DNA of 64,000 bases from an uncultured delta proteobacterium. Its GTDB lineage: Bacteria > Bdellovibrionota > FAC87 > UBA2466. A model generated the notes under the pieces. The model searched no databases, was not told where the DNA came from, and worked only from the letters and a program-made list of their open reading frames with translations. Both the position numbers and the translations under genes were made by a program. This document shows positions 42,063 to 63,598 of the stretch, piece by piece. The DNA is taken from positions 65,011 through 129,010 of the forward strand of contig CAVZSV010000001.1 of the NCBI GenBank assembly GCA_963778115.1, read 5' to 3'. Position 1 is the stretch's first letter; every line of letters begins with the position of its first letter.

Positions 42063-42203
42063 GAGTCCGATGGCGGGACGCAAATTTGATGGAACCTAGG
42101 TTGAGAGGGTTTGGAATTTTCACAACATTAACCGGCTACGCCGGGCTGGAGGTTAAGATTAAACTTAAGGGTAACCTTAATAGTTATGGCGGGGCGGACG
42201 GGG
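41924..42203 (+). repeat. 280-bp direct repeat, copy A. It covers the 3' end of the four-helix-bundle gene plus 140 bp downstream, and ends in the 17-bp core ATGGCGGGGCGGACGGG (42186-42202)
   Basis: About 97% identical to 49588-49867. Confidence 0.85.
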
Positions 42204-42322
42204 CGCGTTAGGCGTGATCCGCGAAGTTGAAGAGATCGTTCGAAAATAACAAATGACGACGAGACACTCGTGTTTCGCGACTGAACGAAACTGCACCGAA
42301 ATGAAAGAGATCACCATGTCAT

Positions 42323-42347
42323 GTCCCGAAACGTCCCGATCGGGACC
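42323..42347. promoter_or_regulatory. GTCCCGAAACGTCCCGATCGGGAC. A direct-plus-inverted GTCCC(R) repeat cluster, boundary element copy A
   Basis: Two direct GTCCCGA copies plus the palindrome GTCCCGATCGGGAC, located ~120 bp downstream of the 17-bp core. Confidence 0.5.
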
Positions 42348-42583
42348 GCATTAAAACGGTCTCGGTTGGACTTCGGGATACGTTTTTTCCTTTTCTGCCC
42401 GCCAACTTTTCAAGACCACATTTGAAAGGAATGAGTATGAAACTCTTTCAGTGGATAGGAAGCCTAATGGCCATCGCTTGCCTTATGGAAATTGCTCACA
42501 ACCCCAGGTACTTAATGACACTCAACAAGGGCCAGCACCACACTTGACTCGGTTTAACGACGAACTGGTAAAGGGAGGAATGA

Positions 42584-42955
42584 CTATCTCTTCCGGTTGC
42601 TCTCTACATAATGGAAGATCTCTGGCAAACACTTATCGAAAACATCGGTGATGTCGATGCCGTAGATCCTTTTCGCACGGGCAATAATTTTCTTGCGGTA
42701 GGCTTCGTACGGTTTTTTACCTGCGGGCCCAAAGTCGAAAATAGTAGACCGGTCGGTAATGAGCGCCTCTGGGTGTTTGAGAACATGGAGCAAGAAATGG
42801 TCTGCGATGTCCGAGACGAAATTAAGCTTCTCTTGTGAAGCAACAACGACCGTTTGTCCTTTAAACGGTCCTTTGTCTAGCTTGAACGGAGGAAACTTGT
42901 CATCGATGCGTCTCTTCTTCATGGCAGCAAACCTTGCTACAAACTGGGGAAGCAA
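42584..42955 (-). CDS. Hypothetical protein
   Basis: 123-aa ORF with no recognised domain. It is the first gene inside module 1. Confidence 0.3.
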   Translation of the reverse strand: MLPQFVARFAAMKKRRIDDKFPPFKLDKGPFKGQTVVVASQEKLNFVSDIADHFLLHVLKHPEALITDRSTIFDFGPAGKKPYEAYRKKIIARAKRIYGIDITDVFDKCLPEIFHYVESNRKR

Positions 42956-43137
42956 TCAATGAAAAGCCATCGGTGTGACGCTCCCCTATTACCCTGGCGT
43001 ACCGTTCCTCTCGGAGGCATAATCACCGAGCCAGGAGATCGATCGCGAGCTATTTATTAACTATCTGAAATTACAAAAGTATTCGGTTACCGGTAAATTA
43101 CTTCTTATGCTAATATTGGCGTCGTGGAGAATGGATC

Positions 43138-43401
43138 ATGAAAGAATTGAAAAACAAACCTGAAGAAACGAAGGAGCCATCGCTTTACGAACAGGCGATG
43201 CGGGCTAAGCCGCGATTTGACTCAAAAGAAGAAGCGATCGAATTCTATACAAATAAATTAAATGCACTTGCCTCAAAGCGAGTGACTACAGTTCCGAAAA
43301 TACTTACTGAAGCAGAAACATCTCCTGTCTTTGATGAAGATTTTCTGGAAGCTCGCAATCTTTGGAACTCTCTCTCTAGCGTGAAGGCTCTCTCGAAGTA
43401 A
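43138..43401 (+). CDS. Hypothetical small protein
   Basis: 87-aa ORF. Confidence 0.25.
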   Translation: MKELKNKPEETKEPSLYEQAMRAKPRFDSKEEAIEFYTNKLNALASKRVTTVPKILTEAETSPVFDEDFLEARNLWNSLSSVKALSK

Positions 43402-43473
43402 TCCATGGCATGGGCCGATCTAGTCTTCTTGCGAGTCGCTTGCGCAGTGTTGGTTTGCTTGCAACTTGGTTCA

Positions 43474-44340
43474 TCATGCGGCGGTCTTCCTCCTATGGGA
43501 TTTCGCTTCAGCTGCGGCACGATGATACTTGTGGGCAATCGCCGAAAGGTCCACGGTCGGCGAGGGTAATTTCATTTTCAGATTTTCCAGGGTGCTCGTG
43601 ATTATCTGGGAGATAGCAAGATCGCGGAACCATTTGTGGTCCGATGGGATAACGAACCATGGGGCGTGCTTGGTATTGGTCTTGTGCAATAGATCCTCAT
43701 ACGCCTTCGTATACTCATCCCAGTACTCCCGCTCTTTATAATCAGAATCACTGATTTTCCAATTTCTGGCTGGGTCATCCAATCTCTTCTTAAAGCGTGC
43801 GAGCTGTTCTTCCTTCGATATGTGTAAGAAAAACTTGAGGATGGTCGTGTTGTTTTGGATAGCAAGAAGCCTTTCGAAATCATTGATGAGATCGAAGCGC
43901 TTGGACCACTCTTTTTGAGGCACAAGTTTATGGACTCGAACGACGAGAACATCCTCATAATGGGAGCGATTAAAAATAGCAACACTGCCCTTACGAGGTG
44001 CATGGGGGTGCACCCGCCACAGGAAGTCGTGTTCCAATTCTTCCGGGCTCGGTTGTTTAAAGGACGCAACGACGCACCCTTGAGGATTCATACCCGTCAA
44101 AACGTGTCTTACGACGCCGTCCTTACCTGCCCCATCCAGTCCTTGGAGAACAATAAGAAGGGAATGTGTATTCTCGGCGTACATCAGATATTGCAGTTGA
44201 TCCATCTTCTGCAGATGTTTTTGGATCACGGGCAGTCCTTCTCTGTGGGATTCGTGCTTTCCATGACTGCTAGGACTTAAGTCTGCGAGTCTGACTTTGG
44301 CGCCTGGCTCAATGAATAGTTTCTCTCGATAGTTCTCCAT
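43474..44340 (-). CDS. ppk2: Polyphosphate kinase 2 (PPK2) family polyphosphate:nucleotide phosphotransferase
   Basis: Walker A LLIVLQGLDGAGKDG, the lid/Walker B region, and conserved ...RVHPHAP...NRSHYEDVLVVRVH. Confidence 0.85.
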   Translation of the reverse strand: MENYREKLFIEPGAKVRLADLSPSSHGKHESHREGLPVIQKHLQKMDQLQYLMYAENTHSLLIVLQGLDGAGKDGVVRHVLTGMNPQGCVVASFKQPSPEELEHDFLWRVHPHAPRKGSVAIFNRSHYEDVLVVRVHKLVPQKEWSKRFDLINDFERLLAIQNNTTILKFFLHISKEEQLARFKKRLDDPARNWKISDSDYKEREYWDEYTKAYEDLLHKTNTKHAPWFVIPSDHKWFRDLAISQIITSTLENLKMKLPSPTVDLSAIAHKYHRAAAEAKSHRRKTAA

Positions 44341-44374
44341 ATTCCTCTCCCATTATTCTTGCAAAAACCAGGGA

Positions 44375-46888
44375 CTAAGAGGCTTCTCTCGTGGGCAGAG
44401 AGCCTTTAACAGTTTGAAGTAATTTTGAAGCCGGTGCCGAAACTTTGTTGGCTTGACCCGAATCCAGTATTCGATACGCGAGAAGCTTCAATCGGTCGTT
44501 TAGAAGCGCCCATGTTGCGGCATAAGCCCACACGAAAAACGCCCATCCCCATCCTAAGGGCGTCATAAACAGACCGTACACCGCAATCAACGTTGCTACG
44601 GTTTGTGTGCCTAGCACTGCTACCCACAAGATTCGGGCGGGACGAATAGACCAGAACGGTCCACGCGTCCTGGTCAGGAATATCGTCATATGTCCTGCGA
44701 CAGACAGTTTGAGGTACATTAGAGTTTGAATGTGATCGCGATCAAGATGAAAGACCCGCTCGCCAAGGTAGAAGAGAATGAATGCCGCTAAGACACCAAG
44801 GATGCCGAGCACAGTGGATATTCCGAGCACCAGGCGCATGTTCCACGCCTCCGGGGAATTCTTGTAATGAACTCTATCGTAAGCAATGGACAGAATAGCT
44901 CCGTCATTAAGTAAGGCCAACATGACGATCATGACTGCGGTCACTGGATAGAAGTTAAATACCAGGATCGAAAGAGTCATGAATAAGAGTACTCGCAAGG
45001 TCTCAGCGATTCGGTAAATCGCATAACTGTTCATCCGCTGAAAAATTTTACGACTCTCCTTTATAGCCGTGACTATTACGGATAGTCCCGGCGTCATGAG
45101 AACGATCGATGCCGCGGCACGAGCTGCATCCGTCGCATCCGAAACCGCGATACCGCAGTCGGCCTTCTTGAGAGCGGGAGCATCATTAACCCCATCGCCG
45201 GTCATGCCCACGATGTGGCCGCGTTTCTGGAGAACATCTACAATGTGAAACTTATGCTCCGGAAATACCTGCGCGAAACCATCCGATTTCTCAATGGAGT
45301 CTGCGAGCTCTTTAGTCTCCTCGTGCTTACTATCGGCAAACCCGCTGGCATTCAGGATATTGGTGCCCAGTCCCAACTTCTTGGCCGTTTCCCGAGCGAT
45401 TGCCATCTGGTCGCCCGTTACCATCTTGATGTTGACTCCCATCTGTCTGGCAGTGGTAATGGTCGCCTTGGCGTCTTCTCTTGGGGGATCGAAGAGCGGC
45501 AATACCCCTAAAAACTGCCACGCACCGTCGGCGCTTGTCCGAGCTACTCCAAGCGAGCGAAAACCGCGTGCGGCAAATTCATTCACGGCCTTTTCGACGT
45601 CTGCTTGGATCTTTCCGGCGTTTGCCGACAATTGCAGGACTACTTGGGGTGCTCCTTTTGTCGTCTTAAACTCTTTTCCGTCCGTTCCCTTCACCGTGGC
45701 TTCCGTACGCTTATGCACTGGATCGAACGGGAGGAAGTGAATCACCTGATAGCCCTTGAGTGCGGATTCGCTTTTCAGGCCCTTCAGAACGGCCAGGTCG
45801 ATAGTGTCTTTATCGTCCGCTCGTGACGCCAGAGCCGCACTTAGAATAAGATCATCCAACGTCGTTCCATTTACGGCGAATGGATCACCCAAGGTCAGTT
45901 TGTTCTGGGTCAAGGTGCCGGTCTTATCCGCGCACAGAACATCCACTCCTGCTAATTCCTCGATAGCGGTGAGGCGCGTCACAATCGCCTGCTCCTTGGC
46001 CAGAATTCGAGCCCCCACCGCCATCGTCACTGAAAGCACTGTGGGCATCGCTACGGGAATAGCGGCTACCGTCAACACTAGAGCAAACTGCAATGTGGTG
46101 AGAATCGGATCTCCCCTGAAGACAGCGATCGTAATAATCATCGCCACCAAAATAACGGCGAACACGATCAGATAATTACCAATCTTCAAAACGGCCTTCT
46201 GGAAATGACTGACGGTTCGTGCTTCGGCTACGAGTTCCGCGGTCTTTCCGAAAAAGGTGTTCTGACCCGTGGCATAGACGAGCGCATCTATTTCACCTTG
46301 GCGGACAACGGAACCGGAAAAGATCGCTTCCCCGGGCTTGCGCGTTGCAGGCAATGATTCACCGGTTAGCGTCGACTCATCCACTTCTATCGGGTCACCT
46401 GCAAGTAGACGCGCGTCCGCCGGTACAATGTCCCCCAATCGCACACGAATGACATCGCCCGGAACTAGATCACGCGCTGGCGCCGAGATCCACTGATTGT
46501 CGCGTCTCACCCGAGCGTTAATGGCAAGCTTTGCTTTAAGGGCCTCGATGGCGTTACCCGCCTGGCGTTCCTCCCAGAATCCCACGATGGCGTTGGAAAG
46601 TAACAATACGAGAATGATCAAGAAATCGGGCCAGTGGCGAGCTACCGCGGAAAGAATTACGGCCGCCTCGATCATCCACGGAATCGGTCCCCAAAAGTAG
46701 CTCAGAAACTTTAGAAATAGGTTCGTCTTCTTCTCTTCAATTGCGTTGGGACCATATTGGAGGAGCCGCTTCCGCGCCTCAGCTAGGCTGAGGCCGTCCG
46801 GCGATGCTCCTAACTTTTTTTCAAGTTCCGGTAGAGGCAATGATTTTAGATCGGCGTGGCCATGTGACTTAACCGTATTAGACATCAT
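44375..46888 (-). CDS. P-type ATPase, P3A (plasma-membrane H+-ATPase-like) subfamily
   Basis: Phosphorylation motif CADKTGTLT, plus TGES and MVTGDQ, and hinge GDGVNDAPALKKAD. The N-terminus (GPNAIEEKK..FLKFLSYFWGPIPWMIEAAVI) closely parallels plant/fungal AHA/PMA1 H+-ATPases. Confidence 0.9.
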   Translation of the reverse strand: MMSNTVKSHGHADLKSLPLPELEKKLGASPDGLSLAEARKRLLQYGPNAIEEKKTNLFLKFLSYFWGPIPWMIEAAVILSAVARHWPDFLIILVLLLSNAIVGFWEERQAGNAIEALKAKLAINARVRRDNQWISAPARDLVPGDVIRVRLGDIVPADARLLAGDPIEVDESTLTGESLPATRKPGEAIFSGSVVRQGEIDALVYATGQNTFFGKTAELVAEARTVSHFQKAVLKIGNYLIVFAVILVAMIITIAVFRGDPILTTLQFALVLTVAAIPVAMPTVLSVTMAVGARILAKEQAIVTRLTAIEELAGVDVLCADKTGTLTQNKLTLGDPFAVNGTTLDDLILSAALASRADDKDTIDLAVLKGLKSESALKGYQVIHFLPFDPVHKRTEATVKGTDGKEFKTTKGAPQVVLQLSANAGKIQADVEKAVNEFAARGFRSLGVARTSADGAWQFLGVLPLFDPPREDAKATITTARQMGVNIKMVTGDQMAIARETAKKLGLGTNILNASGFADSKHEETKELADSIEKSDGFAQVFPEHKFHIVDVLQKRGHIVGMTGDGVNDAPALKKADCGIAVSDATDAARAAASIVLMTPGLSVIVTAIKESRKIFQRMNSYAIYRIAETLRVLLFMTLSILVFNFYPVTAVMIVMLALLNDGAILSIAYDRVHYKNSPEAWNMRLVLGISTVLGILGVLAAFILFYLGERVFHLDRDHIQTLMYLKLSVAGHMTIFLTRTRGPFWSIRPARILWVAVLGTQTVATLIAVYGLFMTPLGWGWAFFVWAYAATWALLNDRLKLLAYRILDSGQANKVSAPASKLLQTVKGSLPTREAS

Positions 46889-47163
46889 CAGCGTGCTCCT
46901 TTTTCCGCTTCTGCATCACGGTGTGCGGATTAACTAGCGGGTCTTGGGTTATCACGCACAGATGGTCTAGCCAAGATGTTAGAAGCGGAAGGTCTGTCCG
47001 TTTTGGACGGCGAGTGGTCTCAGGACTCATTTTGGTGTTGGGACTTTATATGGTCTACAAGGGAATATTTACCTAAGATTTCACTGGTTCACCCCACATA
47101 ACCGAAGACACATTTTGATTATTGTTGACTCCGTACTATAGTACGGAGTCTATAATTTGAGGT

Positions 47164-47568
47164 GTGGATATGACTATTGGCAAACTGGCGGAGGCAGCGG
47201 GGGTCGGCGTGGAGACCATCCGTTTTTATGAGCGAAAAGGTCTCATCAAAAAGCCGCAGCGCAAAGACGGCGGATTTCGTTACTACTCAGACGAGGAAGC
47301 ATCAAGAGTACGGTTTGTAAAACGGGCCCAGGAGTTGGGGTTCACGCTACGCGAAGTGAAAGATCTCCTGGACCTTCAATCCAAGCGCAAGGTGACCGGC
47401 TCGCAGGTCCAAAAGAGGGCTCAAGAGAAAATAACCGAGATCCATAAAAAGATTTCTGACTTGAAACAAATGGAAGCGTCACTCCAGCGCCTTGCCGAAG
47501 TCTGCGGAGATGGCGAACAAGCCATCCGAGAATGCAAAATTTTCGACTGTTTTGGAAAAGGTTGCTGA
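47164..47568 (+). CDS. MerR-family metal(loid)-responsive regulator with a C-terminal Cys cluster
   Basis: MerR HTH (IGKLAEAAGVGVETIRFYERKGLI...ELGFTLREV), a coiled coil, then C-x8-C...C-x5-C. Confidence 0.85.
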   Translation: MDMTIGKLAEAAGVGVETIRFYERKGLIKKPQRKDGGFRYYSDEEASRVRFVKRAQELGFTLREVKDLLDLQSKRKVTGSQVQKRAQEKITEIHKKISDLKQMEASLQRLAEVCGDGEQAIRECKIFDCFGKGC

Positions 47569-47582
47569 AGAAAGGATTAATT

Positions 47583-48023
47583 ATGAGACCTCACTTATCA
47601 ATGAATGTGAAAAGCCTCGAAAAGTCGGTCGACTTTTACCGGACGGTATTTGGAGTTGAGCCCCAAAAGCGATCCTCTACCTACGCAAAATTTGACCTCA
47701 ATGACCCCCTTTTTAATTTCACCATGCACGAAGTTTCTGAAGGAAGAGATGCGAGTCGGGTCAATCATCTAGGTATCGAAGTCGGAAGCGTTGAAGAGGT
47801 ATTAGCCTGGAAGAAACGGCTTGAAACGAAGAAAATACAAACTTTGTCCGAGGAGAACGCCGAATGTTGTTTTGCGAAGCAGGATAAATTTTGGTTCCAA
47901 GACCCTGACGGTAATTCCTGGGAAGTCTTTTTTGTTCACGAGCAGCTGCCCGTTGAAGGAGCGGAACCCCCAAGAACAGTATCGAAAGCGGGAGCCTGTT
48001 CTACCGCCTCCAAGTGTTGTTAG
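47583..48023 (+). CDS. VOC/glyoxalase-fold protein of the ArsI/CadI family. The ORF opens at 47532
   Basis: VOC fold with a vicinal Cys pair (ENAECCF), as in ArsI C-As lyases and CadI, plus a C-terminal Cys-rich tail (ACSTASKCC). It lies in an ars operon context. Confidence 0.65.
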   Translation: MRPHLSMNVKSLEKSVDFYRTVFGVEPQKRSSTYAKFDLNDPLFNFTMHEVSEGRDASRVNHLGIEVGSVEEVLAWKKRLETKKIQTLSEENAECCFAKQDKFWFQDPDGNSWEVFFVHEQLPVEGAEPPRTVSKAGACSTASKCC

Positions 48024-48032
48024 TACCCATAG

Positions 48033-49088
48033 ATGAATCTCGTTAAAAAGAAACTGTCATTTCTCGACCGCTATCTGACTCTATGGGTTTTCCTGGCAAT
48101 GGGATTAGGACTCCTTCTAAGTATCCGGGCACCCGGGCTCACTAACGCCCTTACCAGAATGAGTTATGGAACTACGTCCTTACCCATCGCCATCGGTCTT
48201 ATTTTGATGATGTATCCGCCCTTAGCAAAGGTGCGGTTCGAAGAACTTCCGCCGGTTTTTCGAAATCGAAGAGTTTTGCTTCTGTCCTTAGTTCAAAACT
48301 GGATTTTGGGACCGCTTTTAATGTTTGTTCTCGCGGTTATTTTCCTAAGGGATCGGCCGGAATATATGGCAGGGCTCATATTGATTGGGCTCGCCAGGTG
48401 CATTGCCATGGTCATCGTCTGGAACGAGCTTGCCGAAGGAAGCACTGAGTATTGCGCGGGGCTTGTCGCCTTCAATTCTATTTTTCAGATCCTCTTTTTC
48501 CCACTTTACGCCTATGTCTTTCTAACGGTACTTCCCAATGTTCTTGGGATTCAATCTTTGAAATTAGATGTCTCTATTGGAGAAATAGCGAGGTCCGTAG
48601 GAGCCTATCTGGGCATACCATTTTTGGCGGGGTTTCTGACACGCTTTATTCTACGGCCCCGAAAGGGAGCTGATTGGTATGACAAGAGTTTCGTGCCGTT
48701 TATCAGTCCAATCACGCTTGTAGCGCTCCTTTTTACAATCGCCGTGATGTTTTCCCTTAAAGGAAATCAGGTCGTTGAACTCCCGATGGAGACGTTGAGA
48801 ATCGCGCTGCCGATGGCGATCTATTTCATCGTGATGTTTTTCCTGTCTTTTGCCTTGAGCGAAAAGGCGGGCGCCAGTTATCCACAGGCTACCAGTCTTT
48901 CTTTCACCGCAGCCTCAAACAATTTTGAGTTGGCCATTGCCGTCGCGATTTCTACCTTTGGGCTCCATAGTGGGGTTTCCTTTGCGACCGTAATCGGTCC
49001 CCTTGTTGAGGTGCCCGTGCTGATTTCACTCGTTCGGGCCGCTTTTTGGTTTAAGAAACGCTGGCCTCTGAAGGCAGAAATGAGGTGA
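48033..49088 (+). CDS. acr3: Arsenite efflux permease, ACR3 family
   Basis: The 10-TM bile/arsenite/riboflavin transporter fold with ACR3 signatures ([43 protein letters not shown]). Confidence 0.9.
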
Positions 49089-49092
49089 TGAA

Positions 49093-49560
49093 ATGAATAT
49101 CCTATTTATGTGTGTTGCCAATTCAGCTCGCAGCCAAATGGCCGAAGGGTTAGCCAAAAAAATATTTGATTCTTCAGTTCGGGTTGAAAGCGCCGGTTCG
49201 AATCCAAGCAAGGTCAATCCATTTGCGATTAAGGTAATGGAAGAAGTCGGGGTGGACTTAACTCAACACTATTCCAAATCCTACGATGAGCTGGAGCCGG
49301 CATTCATCGTCAAACTCGATTATGTCATCACCCTTTGTGCCGAGGAAGTGTGTCCTCAAATGGTATCTCGGGCAAAAAAAATCAACTGGCCTCTCTCTGA
49401 TCCTGCTAACAAAGCGGAAAATGACGAAATTCAATTGGCGACCTTTAGGGAAACTCGTAACTCACTCCTTTCTCGCCTTAGGGATTTCGCGAAGCAAAAT
49501 GGGATTAAATGGAAAAGCGGCGAAAGCGCGACCCACTGTTCTCTATCTCGACCGTCATAG
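49093..49560 (+). CDS. arsC: Arsenate reductase ArsC (LMW phosphotyrosine-phosphatase family)
   Basis: ILFMCVANSARSQMAEG is the CX5R P-loop of the LMW-PTP. It is the last gene of the ars operon. Confidence 0.75.
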   Translation: MNILFMCVANSARSQMAEGLAKKIFDSSVRVESAGSNPSKVNPFAIKVMEEVGVDLTQHYSKSYDELEPAFIVKLDYVITLCAEEVCPQMVSRAKKINWPLSDPANKAENDEIQLATFRETRNSLLSRLRDFAKQNGIKWKSGESATHCSLSRPS

Positions 49561-49587
49561 AGTCCGGCAATTTCTGCTGCGAGGATC

Positions 49588-49867
49588 GGTGTTTGAGTGT
49601 GTAGCGATTTTGGATTTGGTAAGGACGATGGAATTGGTGGAAGAAGGTATCGATGATTTGGAAATTGAGTTGGAGCATTTGGGGAAGATGTTGTCGGTGT
49701 TGATTCGATTTATTGAGACTAATCCGAGGAAATAAGAGTCCGATGGCGGGACGCAAATTTGATGGAACCTAGGTTGAGAGGGTTTGGAATTTTCGCAACA
49801 TTAACCGGCTACGCCGGTCTGGAGGTTAAGATTAAACTTAAGGGTAACCTTAATAGTTATGGCGGGG
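49588..49867 (+). repeat. 280-bp direct repeat, copy B. It contains a 5'-truncated copy of the four-helix-bundle gene 3' end (a gene fragment) and the 17-bp core at 49859-49875
   Basis: Near-identical to copy A. The ORF-track ORF 49286-49735 is a read-through artefact fusing the arsC antisense/out-of-frame region to this fragment. Confidence 0.85.
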
Positions 49868-49993
49868 CGGACGGGATTCTTTAGGACGATTTTGCAACGC
49901 GTTGGATCGTAACGATTATTAATAATCACAAAAGCTTACTCGTAAATTCGACATGACCGAAAGCGCACCAAACTGCCACTACTTGCCATTCCT

Positions 49994-50013
49994 GTCCCAC
50001 AGCCGTCCCACAC
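49994..50013. promoter_or_regulatory. CCTGTCCCACAGCCGTCCCACAC. GTCCCACA direct repeat, boundary element copy B
   Basis: Same architecture and offset from the core as copy A. It lies 57 bp upstream of the xis-like gene. Confidence 0.5.
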
Positions 50014-50069
50014 TTGAACCGTACGAACCGACCTTAACGAACACTTAGGCACACAATGAAGGAGGTACT

Positions 50070-53567: not shown

Positions 53568-53576
53568 ATTAGTCCC

Positions 53577-54116: not shown

Positions 54117-54124
54117 AGTAATTT

Positions 54125-55024: not shown

Positions 55025-55046
55025 CCTACTCCTCGTTGAATCGCGA

Positions 55047-55328: not shown

Positions 55329-55329
55329 C

Positions 55330-55662
55330 TCAAATCTCCTTAAGTCTTCTCAGAATCAATTCTACGTCTTCCTTGGGAATCGCTTGGGTCTTCTTCTTCA
55401 TCGCATGAACCATGTAGATCGCGTCACTCTTCTTGATGAAGTAGAAAAACCTCACTTGCCCACCTCGATCCTTGAATCTCAATTCATGGAGACCGTGATG
55501 GATGCCCGATAAATTCCGACTGACGGGCATTGAGAGCACTTTGCCCTGTTCCAGGAGCGAGATCGCATCCAAGAACTCACCTTGGACCTCTTCCGAGCAC
55601 TCGTGAAGAAACGTTTCCACCGGGCTACGACCTGATGATGTTTCATAGAAGCGTATCTTCAC
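55330..55662 (-). CDS. higB: RelE/ParE-superfamily toxin of the HigB type
   Basis: 110 aa with toxin upstream of antitoxin, which is the HigBA gene order. ...LHELRFKDRGGQVRFFYFI...IYMVHAMKKK matches the HigB/gp49-like pattern. Confidence 0.7.
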   Translation of the reverse strand: MKIRFYETSSGRSPVETFLHECSEEVQGEFLDAISLLEQGKVLSMPVSRNLSGIHHGLHELRFKDRGGQVRFFYFIKKSDAIYMVHAMKKKTQAIPKEDVELILRRLKEI

Positions 55663-55782: not shown

Positions 55783-55799
55783 ATGGCGGGGCGGACGGG
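55783..55799. repeat. Third copy of the 17-bp core ATGGCGGGGCGGACGGG
   Basis: Exact match to the terminal 17 bp of repeats A and B. It is followed by ~200 bp homologous to the post-core segments of A and B. Confidence 0.8.
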
Positions 55800-55872
55800 A
55801 CTCGGACGGCGGAGATTTTTAACGCATTGAGTTAATTCAAATAACAAAAACTAACAACGAGTTACTTGTTAG

Positions 55873-55996
55873 TGTGTCCCGCACAGAAACGCACCAATTA
55901 GCCCCTTTTACCCCTATCCTGTCCCACAAACGTCCCACAAAAAAGCGAGTGGGACGGGTACGAGCGTAGGCGGAGTTTGGCGTGGGACGGTTTCGT
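55873..55996. repeat. ~125-bp repeat, copy C, containing GTCCCACAAACGTCCCACAAAAAAGCGAGTGGGAC (55921-55955)
   Basis: About 90% identical to 63474-63598. Homologous to the motif regions of A and B. Confidence 0.8.
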
Positions 55997-56022
55997 CCCC
56001 TGATGGGGGCAATCTCCCGTGA

Positions 56023-56466
56023 TCAAAGGGGGCAATGGGAGGCGAAATCAAACCACAGGCCTTTGAATTGTTCGATAAACTTCTTCAGGTTGTCGATTCC
56101 GTCCGGTTTTTTGAAATAGAAGCTGGCGCCGTTGGCGTAAAACTCACAAACGTCTTTTTCTAACTCTCCGCTCGAAAACGCACAGACGGGAATTCTCTTG
56201 AAAGCGGGATCAGCTTTTAATTCCCTAAGCACCTCTTGCCCGGATTTTCCGGGCATCCGAACGTCGAGCAGAATGACTTGAGGTTTGGCTTCGGGGGAAG
56301 ACCTGAGTAGCTTGAGGGCTTCGTCTCCACTTTTGGCCGTGGTAACCCGCAGGCCTGAATCCACCATTTTGATGACGGATTTCATTAGCTGAAGTTGATC
56401 CAATGCATCGTCCACGATCATCACGTGCGGTCTCATGCTGCTTTTCCTCCAATACTTTTGGGACAT
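56023..56466 (-). CDS. Single-domain response regulator (receiver)
   Basis: HVMIVDD, then VILLDVRMP (Asp), then a K at KKPDGIDNL. It overlaps the histidine kinase gene end. Confidence 0.85.
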   Translation of the reverse strand: MSQKYWRKSSMRPHVMIVDDALDQLQLMKSVIKMVDSGLRVTTAKSGDEALKLLRSSPEAKPQVILLDVRMPGKSGQEVLRELKADPAFKRIPVCAFSSGELEKDVCEFYANGASFYFKKPDGIDNLKKFIEQFKGLWFDFASHCPL

Positions 56467-57959
56467 CTAAAATAGAATGTGCTACCTGTTCCCGGTACTG
56501 AATCCACCCAAATACGGCCGCCGAAGAGCTCAACGATCTTCTTGCAAAGGGCTAAGCCGATTCCAGTACCCGGATACTCTTCGTTACTATGCAGTCTGTT
56601 GAACATCTCGAAAATTCTATCGGTGTGCTGCGGTTCGATCCCGATACCATTGTCTTTTACAGAAAACTCATAGCAGTCGGCCTGTTCGTTGAAACCGATA
56701 TCTATCTCGGGCTCGCGAGATTTGTCCCGATAGGTCAAAGCATTGCGAATCAGGTTAGTAAATAAAGACTCCCAAAGACTGGATACCCCTTGTACCGCTG
56801 GAAGCTTCCCACAATGGATATGAGCGTGGGCGATCTCTACGTCCTGTTTCAGGTTGGACAATATGCCCTGGACCACCTGGTCTAACTCGATATGCCTGAC
56901 GTGAGTCGCTGAAACATTCACTTTGGCAAGTTCGAGAATATCATTAACAAGAGCGTTTGCCTTCTTGCCGTTCTCCTCGATGAACCCGATCGCCTGGTCT
57001 ATCTCCTCATTTCGGGGTTTGGGGACTAACCGGTCCAACATCTGCGCCCATGAAACGATGGATCGCAGTGGAGAGCGCAGGTCATGAGCCGCAACGCCAG
57101 CAAACTGCTCCAGTTCCTTATTGGAGCGGCTCAATTGCTGGGCGTTCATTTCGAGCTGCTTTTGAGTTTCTGAAAGACTTCCGACCATATGATTGATAGC
57201 GATCGTAAGCTTCTCAATTTCGTCGGTCCCCTTTAGACTGGCCACTCGCGCATCGAGATTCCCCCCTGCAATAGCATCAGCCACCCGTCTCATCTCCCAG
57301 AGCGGCAGAATGAGCGTTCTGTACGTACTAACCCCCGATACGATGGCCAGAAGTAAAAGTGCTAGGGTAAGTCCAGTCATTACCCTGCGAAATCGCTGGT
57401 CAGCCGCCTCCAGATCGACTCCTGCCCTGTGCAGCTTCTTCACATTGAAAATATTTAAATCAGCAATCGCGGCTTCGTTAATCTGTTTCTTGTTGATCCA
57501 AACGTTGAAGACCCTTGCGATCCGTTTCTCCGAACCTTCATCGATGGCATTTACCAGCGCCTCCTGAAGATCCACAATGCCTTTTCTACTTTCAAGGTAA
57601 GCCTCAAATACTCGCTGTCCCCTTCTTGAAGGATTCAAGATTTTCATCTGCTCAATGCATGAGAGAATCTCCTTGTCCGCGTTGCGAAGCAGTCGAAGAT
57701 AAATCGGTTTAGGATCAAATCGATACGAAAGAAGGTATTTTTTCTTGTCGCTTACGAATTTTCTAATCTGGCTGGTTAATAAGCTCGCTTTCTGGACCTT
57801 ATCGAAGACAAGGGTTGCCGCCTCCTTCCTCTGTTGAATGGAGACTGCGAGGTAAATGAAGGAGCCTAGGACCAAACAGAAAATCAAGAACTGGGGAAGA
57901 ATTACCTTGAAGAGCAGGCTCCGCATCTGAAAATGCGTTTGTCGAGTCTGACCGTTCAT
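56433..57959 (-). CDS. Sensor histidine kinase (TM-periplasmic-TM-HAMP-HisKA-HATPase)
   Basis: HAMP (ILPLWEMRRVADAIAGG). H-box FAGVAAHDLRSPLRSI. HATPase_c motifs DNGIGIE and GTGIGLALCKKIVELFGGRIWVDSVPGTGSTFYF. Confidence 0.85.
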   Translation of the reverse strand: MNGQTRQTHFQMRSLLFKVILPQFLIFCLVLGSFIYLAVSIQQRKEAATLVFDKVQKASLLTSQIRKFVSDKKKYLLSYRFDPKPIYLRLLRNADKEILSCIEQMKILNPSRRGQRVFEAYLESRKGIVDLQEALVNAIDEGSEKRIARVFNVWINKKQINEAAIADLNIFNVKKLHRAGVDLEAADQRFRRVMTGLTLALLLLAIVSGVSTYRTLILPLWEMRRVADAIAGGNLDARVASLKGTDEIEKLTIAINHMVGSLSETQKQLEMNAQQLSRSNKELEQFAGVAAHDLRSPLRSIVSWAQMLDRLVPKPRNEEIDQAIGFIEENGKKANALVNDILELAKVNVSATHVRHIELDQVVQGILSNLKQDVEIAHAHIHCGKLPAVQGVSSLWESLFTNLIRNALTYRDKSREPEIDIGFNEQADCYEFSVKDNGIGIEPQHTDRIFEMFNRLHSNEEYPGTGIGLALCKKIVELFGGRIWVDSVPGTGSTFYFRCPKSIGGKAA

Positions 57960-58990
57960 GGGCGACTCCAGGCGGGTTTTTCACTTAGCGTCACCGCTTC
58001 ATAGCTCACCTTTTCCAAAAGGCTCGGGTACAGTACGTGCGAGATATCGACAAGAGGGGGATGACTGGATTCCAGAGCTTCATACCACTCAGCCTCCTGT
58101 TGCATGATGGCCAGAAGGACGTTGTTCAGTTTGAGCCCTCGTCGAAGGGACTTCGAAACCACCGAAATCTCTTTTGCGGTTCCGAACTGGTTACCAAGTT
58201 CTCGGGTGATTATGCTCACCACTTCCTCTGGATTGTCATACTCAAGTTGTTCCGCGCGAAACAACGCCCGAAGGAGTTTAGTAAACGGCGCGCCCTTGGC
58301 AACGACTCGGCTTCGCAGGCCCACAAGCATAGACATCTCAACATAGTCATCTGAGTAGAAGACTTTTATTTGACTAGGAGGAAGAGTATTTTGAATCCTA
58401 ATTAAATGTGGATTCCAAGTGACGACTGCGTCCACCGTCTCACTTTTTAGCGCCCTTAGCATGTCGCCAGGCTCTAAACTTACAAACTTAACCTTTCTAA
58501 GACCAAGGCCGGCCGAGCGGATCATAGACGTCGCAAGAAAATGGCTCGTCGATTTCGGGGTGACACCGACACGTTTTCCACGAAGATCCTCAATTGATTC
58601 AATGCCACTGTTTTTTCTCGCGACCAGAGCGGTATTGTGGGTAGCCTCATGTAAAGAAGTGAGGACTGCGAGATCTTGACCGTCAATCGCTTGCAGTACG
58701 ATCGGTGTCTCGTATGAGGTAGCAAGGTCCACCTTACCGGCAATGGCAGCCTTGAGGGCGTCTCTTCCCGAAGGATAGGGAGCGAGCACGACGTCCAGTC
58801 CCTCATCCCGAAAGTAGCCCTTCGCTAGAGCTACATAGAGAAGGCCAAAGCTCACTTGCTGAGCATCACCGATAACAATCCTCTCAAGCTTAGGACGCTT
58901 CCAGTTTTCAAAGAAGGCTATAGTGAGCAGAGCGGTCAGGAAGAATCCGACGAGGATGAAAAGGGGAATCTTTTTCACCGTGGCAGGCAT
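57956..58990 (-). CDS. Periplasmic substrate-binding protein (NMT1/THI5-like, nitrate/sulfonate/bicarbonate SBP family), co-transcribed with the kinase
   Basis: N-terminal anchor. ...VIGDAQQVSFGLLYVALAKGYFRDEGLDVVL..GRDALKAAIAGKVDLA is the NMT1 pattern. There is a 4-nt overlap with the kinase gene start. Confidence 0.65.
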   Translation of the reverse strand: MPATVKKIPLFILVGFFLTALLTIAFFENWKRPKLERIVIGDAQQVSFGLLYVALAKGYFRDEGLDVVLAPYPSGRDALKAAIAGKVDLATSYETPIVLQAIDGQDLAVLTSLHEATHNTALVARKNSGIESIEDLRGKRVGVTPKSTSHFLATSMIRSAGLGLRKVKFVSLEPGDMLRALKSETVDAVVTWNPHLIRIQNTLPPSQIKVFYSDDYVEMSMLVGLRSRVVAKGAPFTKLLRALFRAEQLEYDNPEEVVSIITRELGNQFGTAKEISVVSKSLRRGLKLNNVLLAIMQQEAEWYEALESSHPPLVDISHVLYPSLLEKVSYEAVTLSEKPAWSRP

Positions 58991-59083
58991 GTCTGGCTAT
59001 CCCCTCAGTTGCCCTTGTGGGACGCTGTTATAGGACTTTAACTATGATGGCCTCATAGCAGATGTGCCGCAAGGTGTCAAAAC

Positions 59084-59094
59084 CGGGGGGGGGG
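59084..59094. repeat. G11 homopolymeric tract (candidate slipped-strand phase-variation site)
   Basis: CCGGGGGGGGGGGTTCCCC read directly from the sequence. It lies ~230 bp upstream of the lipoprotein ORF. Confidence 0.9.
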
Positions 59095-59326
59095 GTTCCC
59101 CTTACCGTGAGCCTCAGAAATTGGCTAGAAAGCATTCCACTCCTGAAGTTTCGACTCGAAACAGAAACGCTCGCAGCGTTGTATTCTCACGGTCTTCGCG
59201 CCCCACCGTTAGTATGCGCATCGCATGTAATCTTCAGTTCATCCTCCTGTTATGTTCGGTGCGTTAAAATTAAGTAAAGACAAGCCCTCGCTGTGTGGGG
59301 TTGCGAAACAAAGAAAGGAAGCCAAT

Positions 59327-59548
59327 ATGAAAAGCATCTATCGATTGTTATTCGTCGCGGGAGTTTTCCTATTGGCGTCCTGTGGAAATCAGTGTGGCCC
59401 GGGAACTTACGATAACGGGAATGGTTGTGTGTACTCTGCTAACAATTACAATTATCCCTATAACGGAGGATATGGGAATTCTTCCTACCCAGGTAGCTAT
59501 CAACCCGGTTATCCAAACTACAACTATCCCGGGTATTATCCTCATTAG
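59327..59548 (+). CDS. Small lipoprotein with a Tyr/Asn/Gly/Pro-rich low-complexity tail. The ORF opens at 59252
   Basis: Lipobox FLLASC followed by NYNYPYNGGYGNSSYPGSYQPGYPNYNYPGYYPH. Confidence 0.4.
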   Translation: MKSIYRLLFVAGVFLLASCGNQCGPGTYDNGNGCVYSANNYNYPYNGGYGNSSYPGSYQPGYPNYNYPGYYPH

Positions 59549-59725
59549 GCGCGCTAGCAATCGTAGCGAGGTTTCTACCGATGGTCCGGTTCAGGGCGGC
59601 CATCACGATTAACTTGCCGATCCTGATCGGGATTAATTCGCAAACCACCGCAGCCCACGATGCCAAAAAGAAAACAGAACAAGACGATCCATTTCATAAT
59701 GGTTAACCTCGTTTTCTGTCCCTGG

Positions 59726-60694
59726 TCATGAATGAATCACCCAGACCGGCAGGTTTGCGTTTCGCAGCACGGCTCGTGTTACACTCCCTAGAAAATTGAT
59801 ATCGAAACCTTCTTTGCGGGAAACCATGGCGATAATCCCCGAACTCAGATCTCGGGCGGTCTTCACAATGTCACCGGCCGGATCAGTACCTTCCTCAATC
59901 AGAATCAGTTTTGCTCTAACGCCGTTCTTTTTTGCCACTTTTTGAAACCGACAAAGAGTAGCGTATTTCTTCGAGGCCACCTCTTTAACAGTTCGCCGAT
60001 AGGATTCCGGAGGGCCAAATGTCGACTCCCCATGCTCTCGAAGAAATTCCGATTCATGAAATAGCGTAATTTTGGCGCCGTGCTGTTGGGCCATGGCAAC
60101 TACTCTTCTGAAGCCCACCAAGGAAGCCTTACTGAGATCGGTGGGAAACAATATATTCTGGATCTTTTCAACGACTCGGGCCTTAGGCGTAACGATGAGA
60201 AGGGGCACATCCGATTGTGCCACCAACGTCTCCGCGAAGCTTCCCAGAATCAAACGATTGAGTCCTTTTCGTGAACGACTCGTGATTGCGAGAAGAGACA
60301 CGTTCGATGCCCTTGCATAAATGAGAAGGTCACGTGCGACTCGTCTCAGGGAAGAGTTACGTGACGTCAGAAGAAGGGGATCTGACATTTCGGGGATATC
60401 GAACCTCTCCAGCTGCCGTTTTATTTTCTTACTAAGCGAAAGGCGCATTTCCGAGGAGTGAGGGCTGAAGTAATCAGGTGGCACTCTGAGCTGCGTTGGA
60501 TTCATCAGATAGACGGGTTCGATGGTCTCGTGGTTTAACTTGCTCCAAGCCCGTAGAAGCTTTGCCATCTTTGCCTGTATGGCGAAGTCATTGGCAAAAG
60601 TATCAAAGGCCCAGAGTACCCGTTTGGTTCTATTGGTTTCCTGCATAAGCTCCTTACCGATTGAAAAGCCGTCTAGCCGTTTCTCAGGGGTCAA
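59726..60694 (-). CDS. Tandem universal stress protein (UspA) domain protein
   Basis: Two Usp domains. The C-terminal ATP-binding pattern is ...IIAMVSRKEGF....GSVTRAVLRNANLPVWVI. Confidence 0.8.
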   Translation of the reverse strand: MTPEKRLDGFSIGKELMQETNRTKRVLWAFDTFANDFAIQAKMAKLLRAWSKLNHETIEPVYLMNPTQLRVPPDYFSPHSSEMRLSLSKKIKRQLERFDIPEMSDPLLLTSRNSSLRRVARDLLIYARASNVSLLAITSRSRKGLNRLILGSFAETLVAQSDVPLLIVTPKARVVEKIQNILFPTDLSKASLVGFRRVVAMAQQHGAKITLFHESEFLREHGESTFGPPESYRRTVKEVASKKYATLCRFQKVAKKNGVRAKLILIEEGTDPAGDIVKTARDLSSGIIAMVSRKEGFDINFLGSVTRAVLRNANLPVWVIHS

Positions 60695-61133
60695 GAGGAA
60701 ATCGAAATGAAAAGTGATTCACCTTTCCTTTCCTTTTTGCCTTTATAATAATTTCATCTCCCGCCTCTCGACGTTCTGGGTGGGATATCCGGCACTCAAA
60801 ATAATCTTTCTCAAGCCCGCAGTAGAAATTTGTCTCGAGCCCTTTGCTTTTGAGGAGAAGGTAGATTGAGGCGTCTCCAACGATGGGATTCGCATTTTCA
60901 GCGTTGAGCAAATAAACTTTGACCCCCTTTTGGCCATCCATCAGAAGCTCTGCGTGAAACGCGTCTCCCTTTCTTACAATCCCACCGTGCGGGCCTGTCT
61001 TCGGAGAGGTATCACCCAAGGAGACGGTGGGAGCTAGAGAAGATAGAAGGAGAAGGAGAAAAGAGATCCATGCGGGACAAGACGCTAATTCAATTCGATG
61101 CTCTTTCTGCTGTAGAAAGACATTCAACGGCAC
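60684..61133 (-). CDS. Hypothetical exported protein
   Basis: 149-aa ORF with a hydrophobic N-terminal segment. Confidence 0.3.
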   Translation of the reverse strand: MPLNVFLQQKEHRIELASCPAWISFLLLLLSSLAPTVSLGDTSPKTGPHGGIVRKGDAFHAELLMDGQKGVKVYLLNAENANPIVGDASIYLLLKSKGLETNFYCGLEKDYFECRISHPERREAGDEIIIKAKRKGKVNHFSFRFPLDP

Positions 61134-61417
61134 CCCGCGCTGCGTGTGGATATCAATTGCTCGTAGACTGGAAACCTAATTACCTTCCCCGGAGGAGTGC
61201 GTGGTCCACCTGGTTTTGGAAGGTTGGGAGTTCCAAGGGTTCGGGCAATCAGACAAAGTGAATACACAAAACAGAAAAACACGCTCAACCTCGATACTGA
61301 GACAATGATGCCGCCTCCAAAAGTCATGGACCAATGAAAGTTGCTTTTCATACCAAGGTAGACTGCGACTGCAATGCTACCCAGATAGACGTTCCTTCTG
61401 AAGATAAAAGGCACCAT
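61124..61417 (-). CDS. Small membrane protein
   Basis: 97 aa with two predicted TM helices. Confidence 0.3.
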   Translation of the reverse strand: MVPFIFRRNVYLGSIAVAVYLGMKSNFHWSMTFGGGIIVSVSRLSVFFCFVYSLCLIARTLGTPNLPKPGGPRTPPGKVIRFPVYEQLISTRSAGCR

Positions 61418-61505
61418 TCTATCCGATAATAGCAGTGCCGAATTACAGGACGATGAATTCTTGATTACATTTGATCATCTTAGATGAGTGACTTAACGCC
61501 ATGCT

Positions 61506-61775
61506 TTAGGCGACGTCCCGTTTTTCTACAATAACCATTTTCCTTTTTTTCTTCGTCGGAGTTTCTGCGTTAAAGTAACTATCGGTTACCTGCTCCCGCC
61601 AGCGCTTAAATCGCCCGGTAAGACCCGACAGGTTCGATCTGATTTGAGCTGGAAGCGCCGCTATTTCAGACAACACTTCGCGTGGCAGTCCCAACTCAAG
61701 CTCCCCCGCGAACCCGGAGAGCTTCAGATAAAGGAGGTACTCAGTGTCTTTTGTCGTTCCAAATTTAAGTCGCAT
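61506..61775 (-). CDS. Hypothetical protein
   Basis: 89-aa ORF. Confidence 0.25.
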   Translation of the reverse strand: MRLKFGTTKDTEYLLYLKLSGFAGELELGLPREVLSEIAALPAQIRSNLSGLTGRFKRWREQVTDSYFNAETPTKKKRKMVIVEKRDVA

Positions 61776-62022
61776 GCCTAATTCCTTTCATTCGTTCGAA
61801 TTAACACGATCTGCAATATAGTCTTTCTTCATTACAGGAGAATGAATTTAGGATGATTTTTCGCGTAAGGTCACTTTAGGGACCCATCGAAGAAGAGCGA
61901 GTTTGAGCCAGTCATTGAGCCCAAGAGAGGCGATGAGCGAGCCGAAAAAAGCAACGGCGATCGCTGGCGTTCGAACCGTTGGGCCTGCGAGAATCAGGCG
62001 ATTCCATAACCACCGCGCAAGT

Positions 62023-62439
62023 TCAAGAAGCCACCTTTTGAGATCCTTCAGAAAGTCCTTCGAGCGCTCGCTCGAGTTTTTGATCCGCTTCACCGGCCAG
62101 CTTTACCAGACGATCATCCCCCAGCATTTCCATAATGGCCGAGGGGCGCACGAATTCCACCGACATCCGGCCAGAACCCAAGTCTCGAACGACTGCATTA
62201 CAGGGAAGAAGACTCGCGACATCGGGATTCGCCACGTAGGCTTCGTAGGCAAGGTTCGGATTACAAGCCCCCAGAATGACGGTGGCGGCAATATCCTTTC
62301 CCGTCTTTTCTTTTATCTTCGAGTGGAGATCGATACGGGTAAGAACTCCGAAACCCTCTTGCTTCAGCGCGTTCGTCGCTTGGGCAACGATATCTTCCAG
62401 ATTACCAATGACCGTTCGCTTGAAGTTAATCTTGTTCAT
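62023..62439 (-). CDS. DUF302 domain protein
   Basis: ...GFGVLTRIDLH...ATVILGACNPNLAYEA...LLPCNAVV matches the DUF302 consensus. The +-strand ORF 61903-62445 is its shadow. Confidence 0.65.
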   Translation of the reverse strand: MNKINFKRTVIGNLEDIVAQATNALKQEGFGVLTRIDLHSKIKEKTGKDIAATVILGACNPNLAYEAYVANPDVASLLPCNAVVRDLGSGRMSVEFVRPSAIMEMLGDDRLVKLAGEADQKLERALEGLSEGSQKVAS

Positions 62440-62449
62440 GGATAGTGCC

Positions 62450-62803
62450 TCAATCCTTCTTCTCGGGTTCGGTGCCGCCCTCTTTCATCATCCTGTGCTT
62501 ACCACGCATCCCGCGATGCATTCCCTTCATCCCGTACATCTCTTCCATCATAGGACAATGGTCTTCTTTCGCCATTGGGCATTCCTTTTTCATTTGCTCG
62601 TGACATTCAGACATCGGCTTATCGGAGCGTAAGCACTCAGCCATCTTCTTGTGCATATCGGCCATCTTGTCCATCAGGTCTGCGCGCTTTACGCGCTCTT
62701 CTTTGGTAAGCTCTGGCATTTTCTTGGTGTCGTCGTTGGCGCGACCCACGGGCGACTGAAGAATAAACATGGAAAGGACTAACAACGTTGCAAAGCGCAT
62801 CAT
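62450..62803 (-). CDS. Periplasmic Met/His-rich protein with a CpxP/Spy-like LTxxE segment. It is a candidate metal-binding stress protein
   Basis: Signal peptide. LTKEERVKRADLMDKMADMHKKM. The C-terminus has MxxM/H-rich clusters (HCPMMEEMYGMKGMHRGMRGKHRMM). Confidence 0.45.
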   Translation of the reverse strand: MMRFATLLVLSMFILQSPVGRANDDTKKMPELTKEERVKRADLMDKMADMHKKMAECLRSDKPMSECHEQMKKECPMAKEDHCPMMEEMYGMKGMHRGMRGKHRMMKEGGTEPEKKD

Positions 62804-63000
62804 AGGAACCTCTTCTGGCTAGTTAGGTTTAACTGCATCCACTTATAGTGCAAGTCACGCACCATGTATTGGCTCCAGCTCAGACAGAGTTCAGTTGATT
62901 CGAGAGACAAATAGTCCCGAAGTTTTCGCCTTTCGTCCCATCACGGGCCTTTGCCGGGCTCGTCGAACCGGCATCCCAGCTACAGAAGCATTGCGAGAAA

Positions 63001-63357
63001 TCACTGAAAAAAGCGGTACCTCTCCACAACCCAGACAAAAGCCAAGGCCAACACGATGAACACCAAGAGACCTAATCCTATTGAGCGATTCGATCCAAGC
63101 TTCGGAGCGGTATAGGCAATAACGGCCATATAAGGAACCCAGGAAACCAGCGTTCCCACCAACACGAACTTAGAATGCTGGCTTACGGCCACCGCGTCTT
63201 TGGCCGCGCCGATGAAAAAGTAGGAGACGATGGTAAATACCGGAACCAAAGCCGCGAATCCTGACCAGGTTCTAAGTCCGCTTTCTTCTAACCCGACAAT
63301 GAGTGCCGTCACTGTCCCTCCGATCAAAAAGGTCACTAGGAATCCAGAAAATGTCAT
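63001..63357 (-). CDS. 4-TM small membrane protein
   Basis: 118 aa and uniformly hydrophobic. Confidence 0.4.
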   Translation of the reverse strand: MTFSGFLVTFLIGGTVTALIVGLEESGLRTWSGFAALVPVFTIVSYFFIGAAKDAVAVSQHSKFVLVGTLVSWVPYMAVIAYTAPKLGSNRSIGLGLLVFIVLALAFVWVVERYRFFQ

Positions 63358-63473
63358 TGTGCCCTCATTTACAAAGTGCGCTCCTCTTTTATACCGCGCT
63401 GATCACGCTGACTAAGAAAAAGAAGCAGCGCTGAACCTCGATTGCAAGCGCGACCGATGCCGAGGAACATTCG

Positions 63474-63598
63474 GTGTGTTCCGCACGAAAACGCACCAAC
63501 TACCCCCTTTTACCCCTATCCTGTCCCACAAACGTCCCACAAAAAAGCGTGTGGGACGGGTACGAGCGTAGGCGGAGTTTGGCGTGGGACAGTTTTAT
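63474..63598. repeat. ~125-bp repeat, copy D, containing GTCCCACAAACGTCCCACAAAAAAGCGTGTGGGAC at 63523-63557
   Basis: About 90% identical to copy C. No 17-bp core lies upstream of it. Confidence 0.8.

Follow-up and report, generated by a model that had tools for sequence, protein, structure and literature searches.

Islets without an integrase, probably accreted in tandem at the tRNA-Asp 3' end of an uncultured delta proteobacterium

A 64,000-nt stretch of DNA from an uncultured delta proteobacterium of the Bdellovibrionota (GenBank assembly GCA_963778115.1, contig CAVZSV010000001.1, positions 65,011 to 129,010), here called the window and numbered from its first base, carries at 42186-63603 what we interpret, at a probability of roughly 0.88, as islets that lack an integrase and have accreted in tandem at the 3' end of a tRNA-Asp(GTC) gene. 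On the evidence of sequence comparison, the boundaries of this feature are attachment (att) junctions of a tRNA-Asp-specific integrase/excisionase (Int/Xis) family, and three units without an integrase are stacked between them. A first-pass annotation of the window had proposed tandem accretion of elements sharing one att family, and this proposal has held: the common core of the boundaries is the 3' end of tRNA-Asp, the flanking arms reassort at the core, and a related contig (L040) carries an array with the same boundaries. The tRNA origin of the core, and the direction in which the tRNA gene and the integrase should lie, are additions to that annotation.

The exact 17-mer ATGGCGGGGCGGACGGG occurs three times in the window, always on the + strand, at 42186 (boundary A), 49859 (B) and 55783 (C); allowing up to 3 mismatches revealed no further core in the window, and none of 100 shuffles gave three matches. 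To the right of the cores, about 170 bp can be aligned among A, B and C, and a fourth boundary, D (63474..63603, + strand), aligns with the distal half of this P-type arm alone. Core A (42186..42202) is followed by a right (P-type) arm at 42203..42360, core B (49859..49875) by an arm at 49876..50030 and core C (55783..55799) by an arm at 55800..56001, all on the + strand. A profile made from ten right arms (three from the window and seven from other contigs) was searched against the window and recovered A, B and C at full length and no other site except D, which matched at profile positions 88-170 only (E 7e-13). Cores A and B are 7673 bp apart and cores B and C 5924 bp, with D about 7.6 kb from C, in agreement with the unit sizes of about 7.7, 5.9 and 7.6 kb estimated at first pass. 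Pattern counts, alignment and the profile also uphold the earlier description of A, B and C as an exact core plus aligned arm and of D as the motif half.

The arms carry a short GTCCC-containing word. GTCCCACA is present in 10 copies in the window against 0.98 expected, and direct pairs of it, 11 bp apart, lie at B (49994, 50005), C (55921, 55932) and D (63523, 63534). The repeat cluster described at first pass is therefore real at these three boundaries, but at A the word is the variant GTCCCGA (42323, 42333). The inverted GTGGGAC partner that had been assigned to the elements exists at C (55949 and 55982) and at D (inverted copies at 63550, as TGTGGGAC, and 63584), but A has the variant TCGGGAC (42340) and arm B has no inverted partner word. 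The word differs by contig (GTCCCACA, GTCCCCCA, GTCCCGCA, GTCCCACTG, GTCCCCGG and GTCCCCCCG), and both arms of the conjugative element of L040/L043, described below, carry an identical word. The paired words stand about one helical turn apart (8-bp word, 10-11 bp spacing) and are putative arm-type sites for Int and/or Xis.

Read on the other strand, the core is CCCGTCCGCCCCGCCAT, which comprises the T-stem strand, the 7-nt acceptor strand, the discriminator G and CCA. ARAGORN, used here for tRNA calls (with Pfam for domains and Rfam for RNA families), places tRNA-Asp genes in four related contigs, L011 (3367-3443), L043, L044 and L035, and these genes start on the + strand with TGGCGGGGCGGACGGG. 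The gene in L011 is tRNA-Asp(GTC) on the minus strand, and its 3' end reads TGGCGGGGCGGACGGGGCTCGAACC on the + strand. At C, identity to tRNA-Asp extends to 21-22 nt, running on past the core to about 55804 (ACTCG). These matches identify the core as the reverse complement of the tRNA-Asp(GTC) 3' terminus. The direct repeats of the window are the 3' end of the target tRNA, and an intact tRNA-Asp at the end of the inserted DNA is present in the relatives L011, L043, L044, L046 and L049.

A second core with its P arm lies 1.3 kb left of tRNA-Asp in L011, with one cargo gene between them. This minimal unit (L011 2054-3443) consists of the core and P arm, a gene for a 342-aa secreted protein, a second GTCCCACA pair and the intact tRNA-Asp; neither integrase nor xis was found in the 1.3 kb between the cores. 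A tRNA-like sequence of another kind was seen in L024 (9745-9790), where a GTCCCCGG pair is followed by a minus-strand fragment like the 3' half of a different tRNA (TGCGGGGCGACGAGGACTCGAACCCACAACC), which may be a remnant of another att type.

Relatives were collected by scanning genome and metagenome collections with a gapped pattern (core, about 120 bp, two GTCCC). The genome collection yielded four to five true relatives (L004, L011, L013 and probably L012), to which L003 was added from an earlier look-up and not via the pattern, and the metagenomes yielded eleven; high-GC matches (L005-L010, L018, L020, L022, L025 and L026) were dropped on inspection as chance. No family member was found in the viral collection, where matches to the 17-mer were chance hits in high-GC DNA or real tRNA-Asp genes, two IMG/VR matches to the bare 17-mer being genuine genes of this kind. 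Host contigs of the relatives are labelled Pseudobdellovibrionaceae or Deltaproteobacteria.

We compared 23 junctions pairwise, each centred on the core (16 nt in this comparison), and found at least ten independent pairs in which homology begins or ends at the core. With positions given relative to the core start, homology lies on the left in A and B of the window (-277 to +15, 98.6% identity), L015a and L019 (-102 to +15, 82.5%), the L040 junction at 9752 and A (-39 to +15, 92.7%) and L024 and L043 (-59 to +19, 88.6%). It lies on the right in L003 and L004 (+2 to +845, 94%), the L040 junctions at 14845 and 4494 (-1 to +158, 84.4%), L011a and the L040 junction at 12126 (-8 to +172, 87.8%) and L013 and L029 (-3 to +185, 72.9%). 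Such breakpoints imply that left and right arms reassort independently and switch inside the core, as site-specific recombination predicts and a generic repeat does not. The window arms can be aligned, too, at 70-71% identity, with the arm at the left end of L040's conjugative element (core at 14843), to which right arm C is 71% identical.

These breakpoints bear directly on the possibility that the boundaries are a generic intergenic regulatory or structural repeat, such as a repetitive extragenic palindrome (REP) or miniature inverted-repeat transposable element (MITE), an operator cluster or a small RNA, rather than sites of recombination. The paired GTCCC-words stand 65-85 bp upstream of the xis start, where they could be an operator, and the arm holds a short CGAG-NNN-CTCG palindrome with compensatory variation between contigs. 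An operator role of the words would, however, be compatible with an att arm and would not replace it, and Rfam has no match to the window or the boundary elements. Besides the homology breakpoints exactly at the core, the core is the tRNA-Asp 3' end, always in the orientation of that tRNA, and the arms are physically linked to xis, int and tRNA-Asp. Nor are the elements ubiquitous, a distribution that the first-pass annotation had named as grounds for doubt: the window has four sites in 64 kb, at module boundaries only, and none in the 42-kb chromosomal part. We regard a generic repeat as very improbable.

The linkage to an integrase is seen in relatives. JGI contig Ga0620602_000348 (95.5 kb) carries both L043 and L040. 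In L043, type IV secretion genes (TrbC, TraC/VirB4, TrbI and an FtsK-type coupling protein) are followed by xis and a 409-aa Phage_integrase gene that overlaps it, then by three GTCCCGCA words and a minus-strand tRNA-Asp. L040 has five cores on the + strand, at 1246 (degenerate), 4492, 9750, 12124 and 14843. We take the core at 14843, which has 33 nt of tRNA identity and a P arm containing a GTCCCGCA pair, to mark where a conjugative element of roughly 34 kb begins on the left; the remaining four enclose integrase-less modules of 2.4-5.3 kb, whose cargo includes Fic, LysR/ADH, Shedu (SduA) and an acetyltransferase, and in two of which xis stands directly after the arm. The structure is complete in Ga0620602_000348, and the window seemingly holds its left part.

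A xis-int pair 99.5% identical to that of L043 lies at tRNA-Asp in L044 (GCA_031425635.1), where the chromosomal flank is different and the tRNA differs 5' of a 33-nt common segment; finding the same pair in another flank is direct evidence, from comparison, that it has integrated in two hosts. Two more xis-int lineages (integrases 46-56% identical) also abut tRNA-Asp. One, in L046, is downstream of a TraC/FtsK/relaxase element, and the other, in L049, from a metagenome-assembled genome whose Xis is labelled Pseudobdellovibrionaceae by NCBI, has no conjugation genes upstream within the available sequence. Integrases of the family are tyrosine integrases of 409-445 aa, the xis genes are of the HTH_17 type and overlap int, and in two of the three lineages the xis-int pair closes a conjugative element with type IV secretion genes.

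The second unit of the window begins, directly after arm B, with a gene that had been called excisionase-like at first pass. It encodes a 77-aa HTH_17 protein (50070..50303, + strand; Pfam E 4e-10) that is 72% identical to the L043 Xis coupled to the tRNA-Asp integrase, which bears out the call. Among the modules of the window it is the only excisionase, modules 1 and 3 having none, and homologs stand directly after an arm in L003, L004, L013, L028, L029 and L040. The protein is rare in a single-sequence search, which gave two matches only; a profile built from six copies, each sitting directly after an arm, gave 321 homologs.

Other candidate recombinases were rejected. An open reading frame (ORF) left of the L011 core is a zinc-ADH by Pfam, and ORFs left of the cores in L014, L024 and L027 look like ordinary chromosomal proteins and had no tblastn match to the family integrase. 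By Pfam, a minus-strand protein beside the L021 arm resembles Rep_O; the L029 homolog of this protein has weak helix-turn-helix matches only, and a fragment in L024 was assigned by homology only. Separately, L041/L029 (2332-8751) holds a larger element at the same att, with Xis, then a ubiquitin-like conjugation defence cluster (BubE/DUF6527, TCAD9 kinase, ThiF E1, Prok-E2_E and Multi_ubiq), then a homolog of the L021 Rep_O-like protein and ParA; besides integrating, this element may therefore also replicate or partition. An Abi_C-carrying module occurs in two copies (L016 919-2532 and L027) that match except for an IS66-family transposase inserted in one of them.

We propose that site-specific recombination by a tyrosine integrase would leave one copy of the 17-bp core at every junction, the roughly 170 bp on its right being the element-borne P-type arm and the sequence on its left the far end of the previous element. 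Since the two parts would come from different elements, an internal junction would be an attR/attL hybrid resembling attP, and units would be added by successive integrations into a core copy. Excision, if any, would be carried out by Int in trans, possibly with help from module 2's own Xis. The trans integrase would most likely come from an element adjoining the intact tRNA-Asp; supply from outside the window was among the options listed at first pass, and the xis-int pairs at tRNA-Asp in relatives support it. All cores are oriented as in a minus-strand tRNA, from which we predict that the integrase and an intact tRNA-Asp on the minus strand lie right of the window. The modules may still be mobile.

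Several observations weigh against this interpretation. As had been noted at first pass, the window has no recombinase gene: no tested ORF has a Phage_integrase match, and the best tblastn E value with the family integrase was 1.7. ARAGORN finds no tRNA in the window either, the core being no more than a tRNA fragment here, and for the modules of the window neither circular forms nor empty sites were seen. GTCCC-words, present on the integrase-side arm of L043, are absent from the left arms of A, B and C, so the modules may be unable to excise. D has no core, and module 3 is therefore not enclosed by two cores inside the window. Junction C and the HigBA pair on its left are kept as one block in L015 (78% identity), which indicates that this junction is old and not recently formed. 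Finally, L040 has more than one GTCCC-word type, so that one word per genome is just a tendency.

D may be a decayed junction fusing module 3 to what comes next, and a coreless partial arm comparable to it occurs in L015. Beyond D, the C-terminal part of a gene runs off the window edge (63611..64000, - strand); it has no Pfam match and is not integrase-like, and its look-up returned just a foreign protein of 35% identity.

Two pairs of boundary segments are alike enough to raise local duplication or homologous recombination (unequal crossing-over) in one island, in place of repeated site-specific integration. Left of the core, A and B have 277 bp in common (41910-42209 against 49583-49882, 97-98.6% identity), and this homology stops at the core's right edge (98.6% over 293 bp); C and D are alike at 93% over 130 bp (55872-56001 against 63474-63603). 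Both stretches are long enough for homologous exchange, and L040 also has near-identical module ends (97% over 453 bp). The three modules, however, have no cargo in common, and a likeness of only about 60-70% between the right arms means that none is a recent duplicate of another. The tRNA-derived core is the sole sequence common to all three junctions, and core breakpoints recur in unrelated contigs. We consider local duplication an unlikely origin of the array; homologous events may still account for D and for the A/B left pair, as secondary changes to an array built by site-specific integration.

The gene immediately preceding a core repeatedly belongs to one family, which encodes four-helix-bundle proteins (Pfam 23S_rRNA_IVP). 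The complete gene in the window (41664..42062, + strand; Pfam E 3e-27) is the last before core A, and left (P'-type) arm A (41910..42185, + strand) comprises its 3' part and a 124-bp spacer that ends in five 6-bp NNTTAA repeats (42150-42185). Left arm B (49583..49858, + strand), 98.6% identical, is a second copy made up of a truncated 3' fragment of the gene and the spacer; the ORF overlapping it (49286-49735) has no Pfam match. Over its last 39 bp, left arm A agrees at 93% with the arm left of L040 core 9750. The family also stands directly left of cores in L040 (two cases) and L004, the ends lying at 41664-42185 and 49583-49858 in the window, at 3060-3544, 4065-4491 and 9309-9749 in L040 and at 1277-1597 (minus strand) in L004; the five NNTTAA repeats follow these genes and abut the core. 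Within a contig the paired ends are near-identical, at the values given above for the window and L040, whereas between contigs they are only about 71% alike, which suggests local duplication, gene conversion or a role in module turnover.

Exact-protein look-ups returned no record for the four-helix-bundle protein of the window and otherwise matched just short Logan contigs of sample ERR11523675 (L001, L002), broken at the repeats. L002, compared with window 49846-55931, is an independent assembly of the same genome that ends exactly at the A/B and C/D repeats.

Domain searches agree with the unrelated cargo assigned to the units at first pass, namely metal/arsenic resistance, TIR defence and two-component/stress functions. 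The modules hold 6-10 genes on both strands and have their own regulators. Module 1 cargo (42361..49582) comprises, by Pfam, PPK2 (43474-44340, - strand), a P-type ATPase (44375-46888, - strand), MerR (47164-47568), a glyoxalase (47532-48023), an ACR3/SBF arsenite carrier (48033-49088) and an ArsC-type low-molecular-weight phosphatase (49093-49560), with neither integrase nor excisionase. Module 2 (50290..55662) carries anti-phage defence: three ThsB-like TIR proteins, a TPR-S/MAP3K_TRAF_bd protein, a SLOG-like protein and a SLATT membrane effector, with a HigA (HTH_3)/HigB (Gp49) pair at its right end. Within its defence cluster (50290-55024) the TPR-S/MAP3K_TRAF_bd protein has a weak TIR-effector match and the SLATT effector two transmembrane segments; no ThsA was detected in the cluster, which is therefore not a canonical Thoeris system. 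Module 3 (56023..63357) has two-component/stress genes: a response regulator, a HAMP histidine kinase, an NMT1-type binding protein, a tandem universal stress protein, DUF302 and small unknown proteins.

To the left, the first 37 kb of the window read as normal chromosomal DNA (MreB, YebC, a DEAD-box helicase, sensor kinases, peptidases). Left of the DoxX and four-helix-bundle genes, 37597-40944 encodes an 807-aa NOV_C-domain protein with weak PADLOC matches (TmtA, HmaA) and a 272-aa unknown protein, and the island may continue beyond A on that side, as an older module that has lost any recognisable left boundary. Two copies of a palindromic element of about 95 bp (40982-41076 and 41514-41610; GGTGTCACTCTCC...GGAGAGTGACAC), 83-84% alike and with no other copies in the window, flank the DoxX gene (41111-41494); they have a MITE/REP-like look.

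Accretion of mobile elements has been described as integration, decay to an att-flanked element without integration or transfer genes, and entry of a next element into the retained att, with ICESt1/ICESt3 (elements both integrative and conjugative, ICEs) and a cis-mobilizable element (CIME) of Streptococcus thermophilus and composite islands at tRNA-Lys in S. agalactiae as examples (PMC5704250). The array resembles these in its tandem elements at one target gene end with att copies between them, in members that have kept att sites but have no integration or transfer genes, and, in a relative, in an integrase-bearing conjugative element at the target-gene end. It differs in host group and target (tRNA-Asp), in the larger number of stacked units (three here, five in L040), and in that several integrase-less units have their own excisionase and four-helix-bundle genes recur at unit ends. 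As in a CIME, attL and attR are both kept by module 1 (A, B) and module 2 (B, C), although not by module 3, and integration and transfer genes are gone: no integrase, relaxase or type IV secretion gene was found in any module, and no remnants of transfer genes were seen. Module 2 departs in part from the strict CIME definition, having retained xis. An integrative and mobilizable element would bring its own integrase and relaxase/oriT, neither of which was found in the window.

Two other known systems offer further comparisons. The attP sites of tyrosine integrases such as those of lambda, L5 and Tn916 consist of a core between arms with arm-type Int sites and Xis sites. The junctions are alike in a short core that equals the target, flanking arms of about 60-200 bp with direct repeats of an 8-bp word 10-11 bp apart, an identical word on both arms of the intact element and a helix-turn-helix excisionase gene beside the integrase gene; they differ in that the left arms of the window junctions are without words and the Int/Xis sites are putative. 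The mobilizable genomic islands (MGIs) of SXT/R391 have their own integrase and borrow an excision factor from the helper ICE. Our modules are likewise small, with the att site of a conjugative element on which, as their helper, they would depend, but the arrangement would be the reverse, some modules having their own Xis and none an integrase.

Integrons provide the last comparison. Like an integron, the array is a line of units that lack an integrase, point the same way, are separated from one another by recombination sites and carry adaptive cargo (resistance, toxin-antitoxin, defence). It has no IntI, attI or Pc, however, its boundary is a tRNA 3' end core with an arm of about 170 bp in place of an attC hairpin, and its units, of 1.3-8 kb, each hold several genes, in both strand orientations and with regulators of their own, unlike single-gene cassettes. 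We nevertheless weighed whether a dedicated integron-like platform might operate here, in which a resident tRNA-Asp integrase, borne by a conjugative element, would take up multi-gene modules that lack an integrase and have just att arms, in some cases with an excisionase of their own, and would stack and reshuffle them as normal host biology, the array being then no graveyard of decayed elements. Arrays are recurrent (three cores in the window, five in L040 and two in L015), complete P arms stand at junctions, and the smallest module is a single gene in 1.3 kb (L011). One P arm occurs with different cargo (L011a and the L040 junction at 12126), one Xis module has different left neighbours (L003 and L004), several modules have xis and never int, and four-helix-bundle genes recur at module ends. 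On the other hand, two of the three integrases in relatives come after type IV secretion/conjugation genes and none stands alone; the modules are multi-gene, in both orientations, with their own regulators; the boundary sequences, read by eye, have no attC-like hairpin, and there is no common promoter. Decayed junctions exist (D, L040 1246 and the L015 partial arm). A standing system of this kind seems to us doubtful, and the unfamiliar cassette-capture platform entertained at first pass is not needed, tRNA-Asp accretion being sufficient.

Repeated mobile-element insertion at one site is a known kind of event, and the host group here is little-studied; a search of open-access texts for Bdellovibrio ICEs at tRNA genes turned up no description of this Int/Xis family. 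The analysis turns an anonymous repeat into a defined att site, the tRNA-Asp 3' end plus a P arm, and, for Bdellovibrio-like bacteria, on whose mobile elements little has been published, defines a new family of integrase/excisionase pairs specific to tRNA-Asp. It also provides an island-boundary rule for genomes and metagenomes, in which a core, about 120 bp and paired GTCCC-words lead to defence and resistance cargo. If true, the standing system would amount to a new class of Xis-only satellite cassette with defence and resistance cargo, often with a four-helix-bundle end gene, and if integrase-less modules are actively exchanged, these bacteria would offer a useful natural case of modular gene capture outside integrons.

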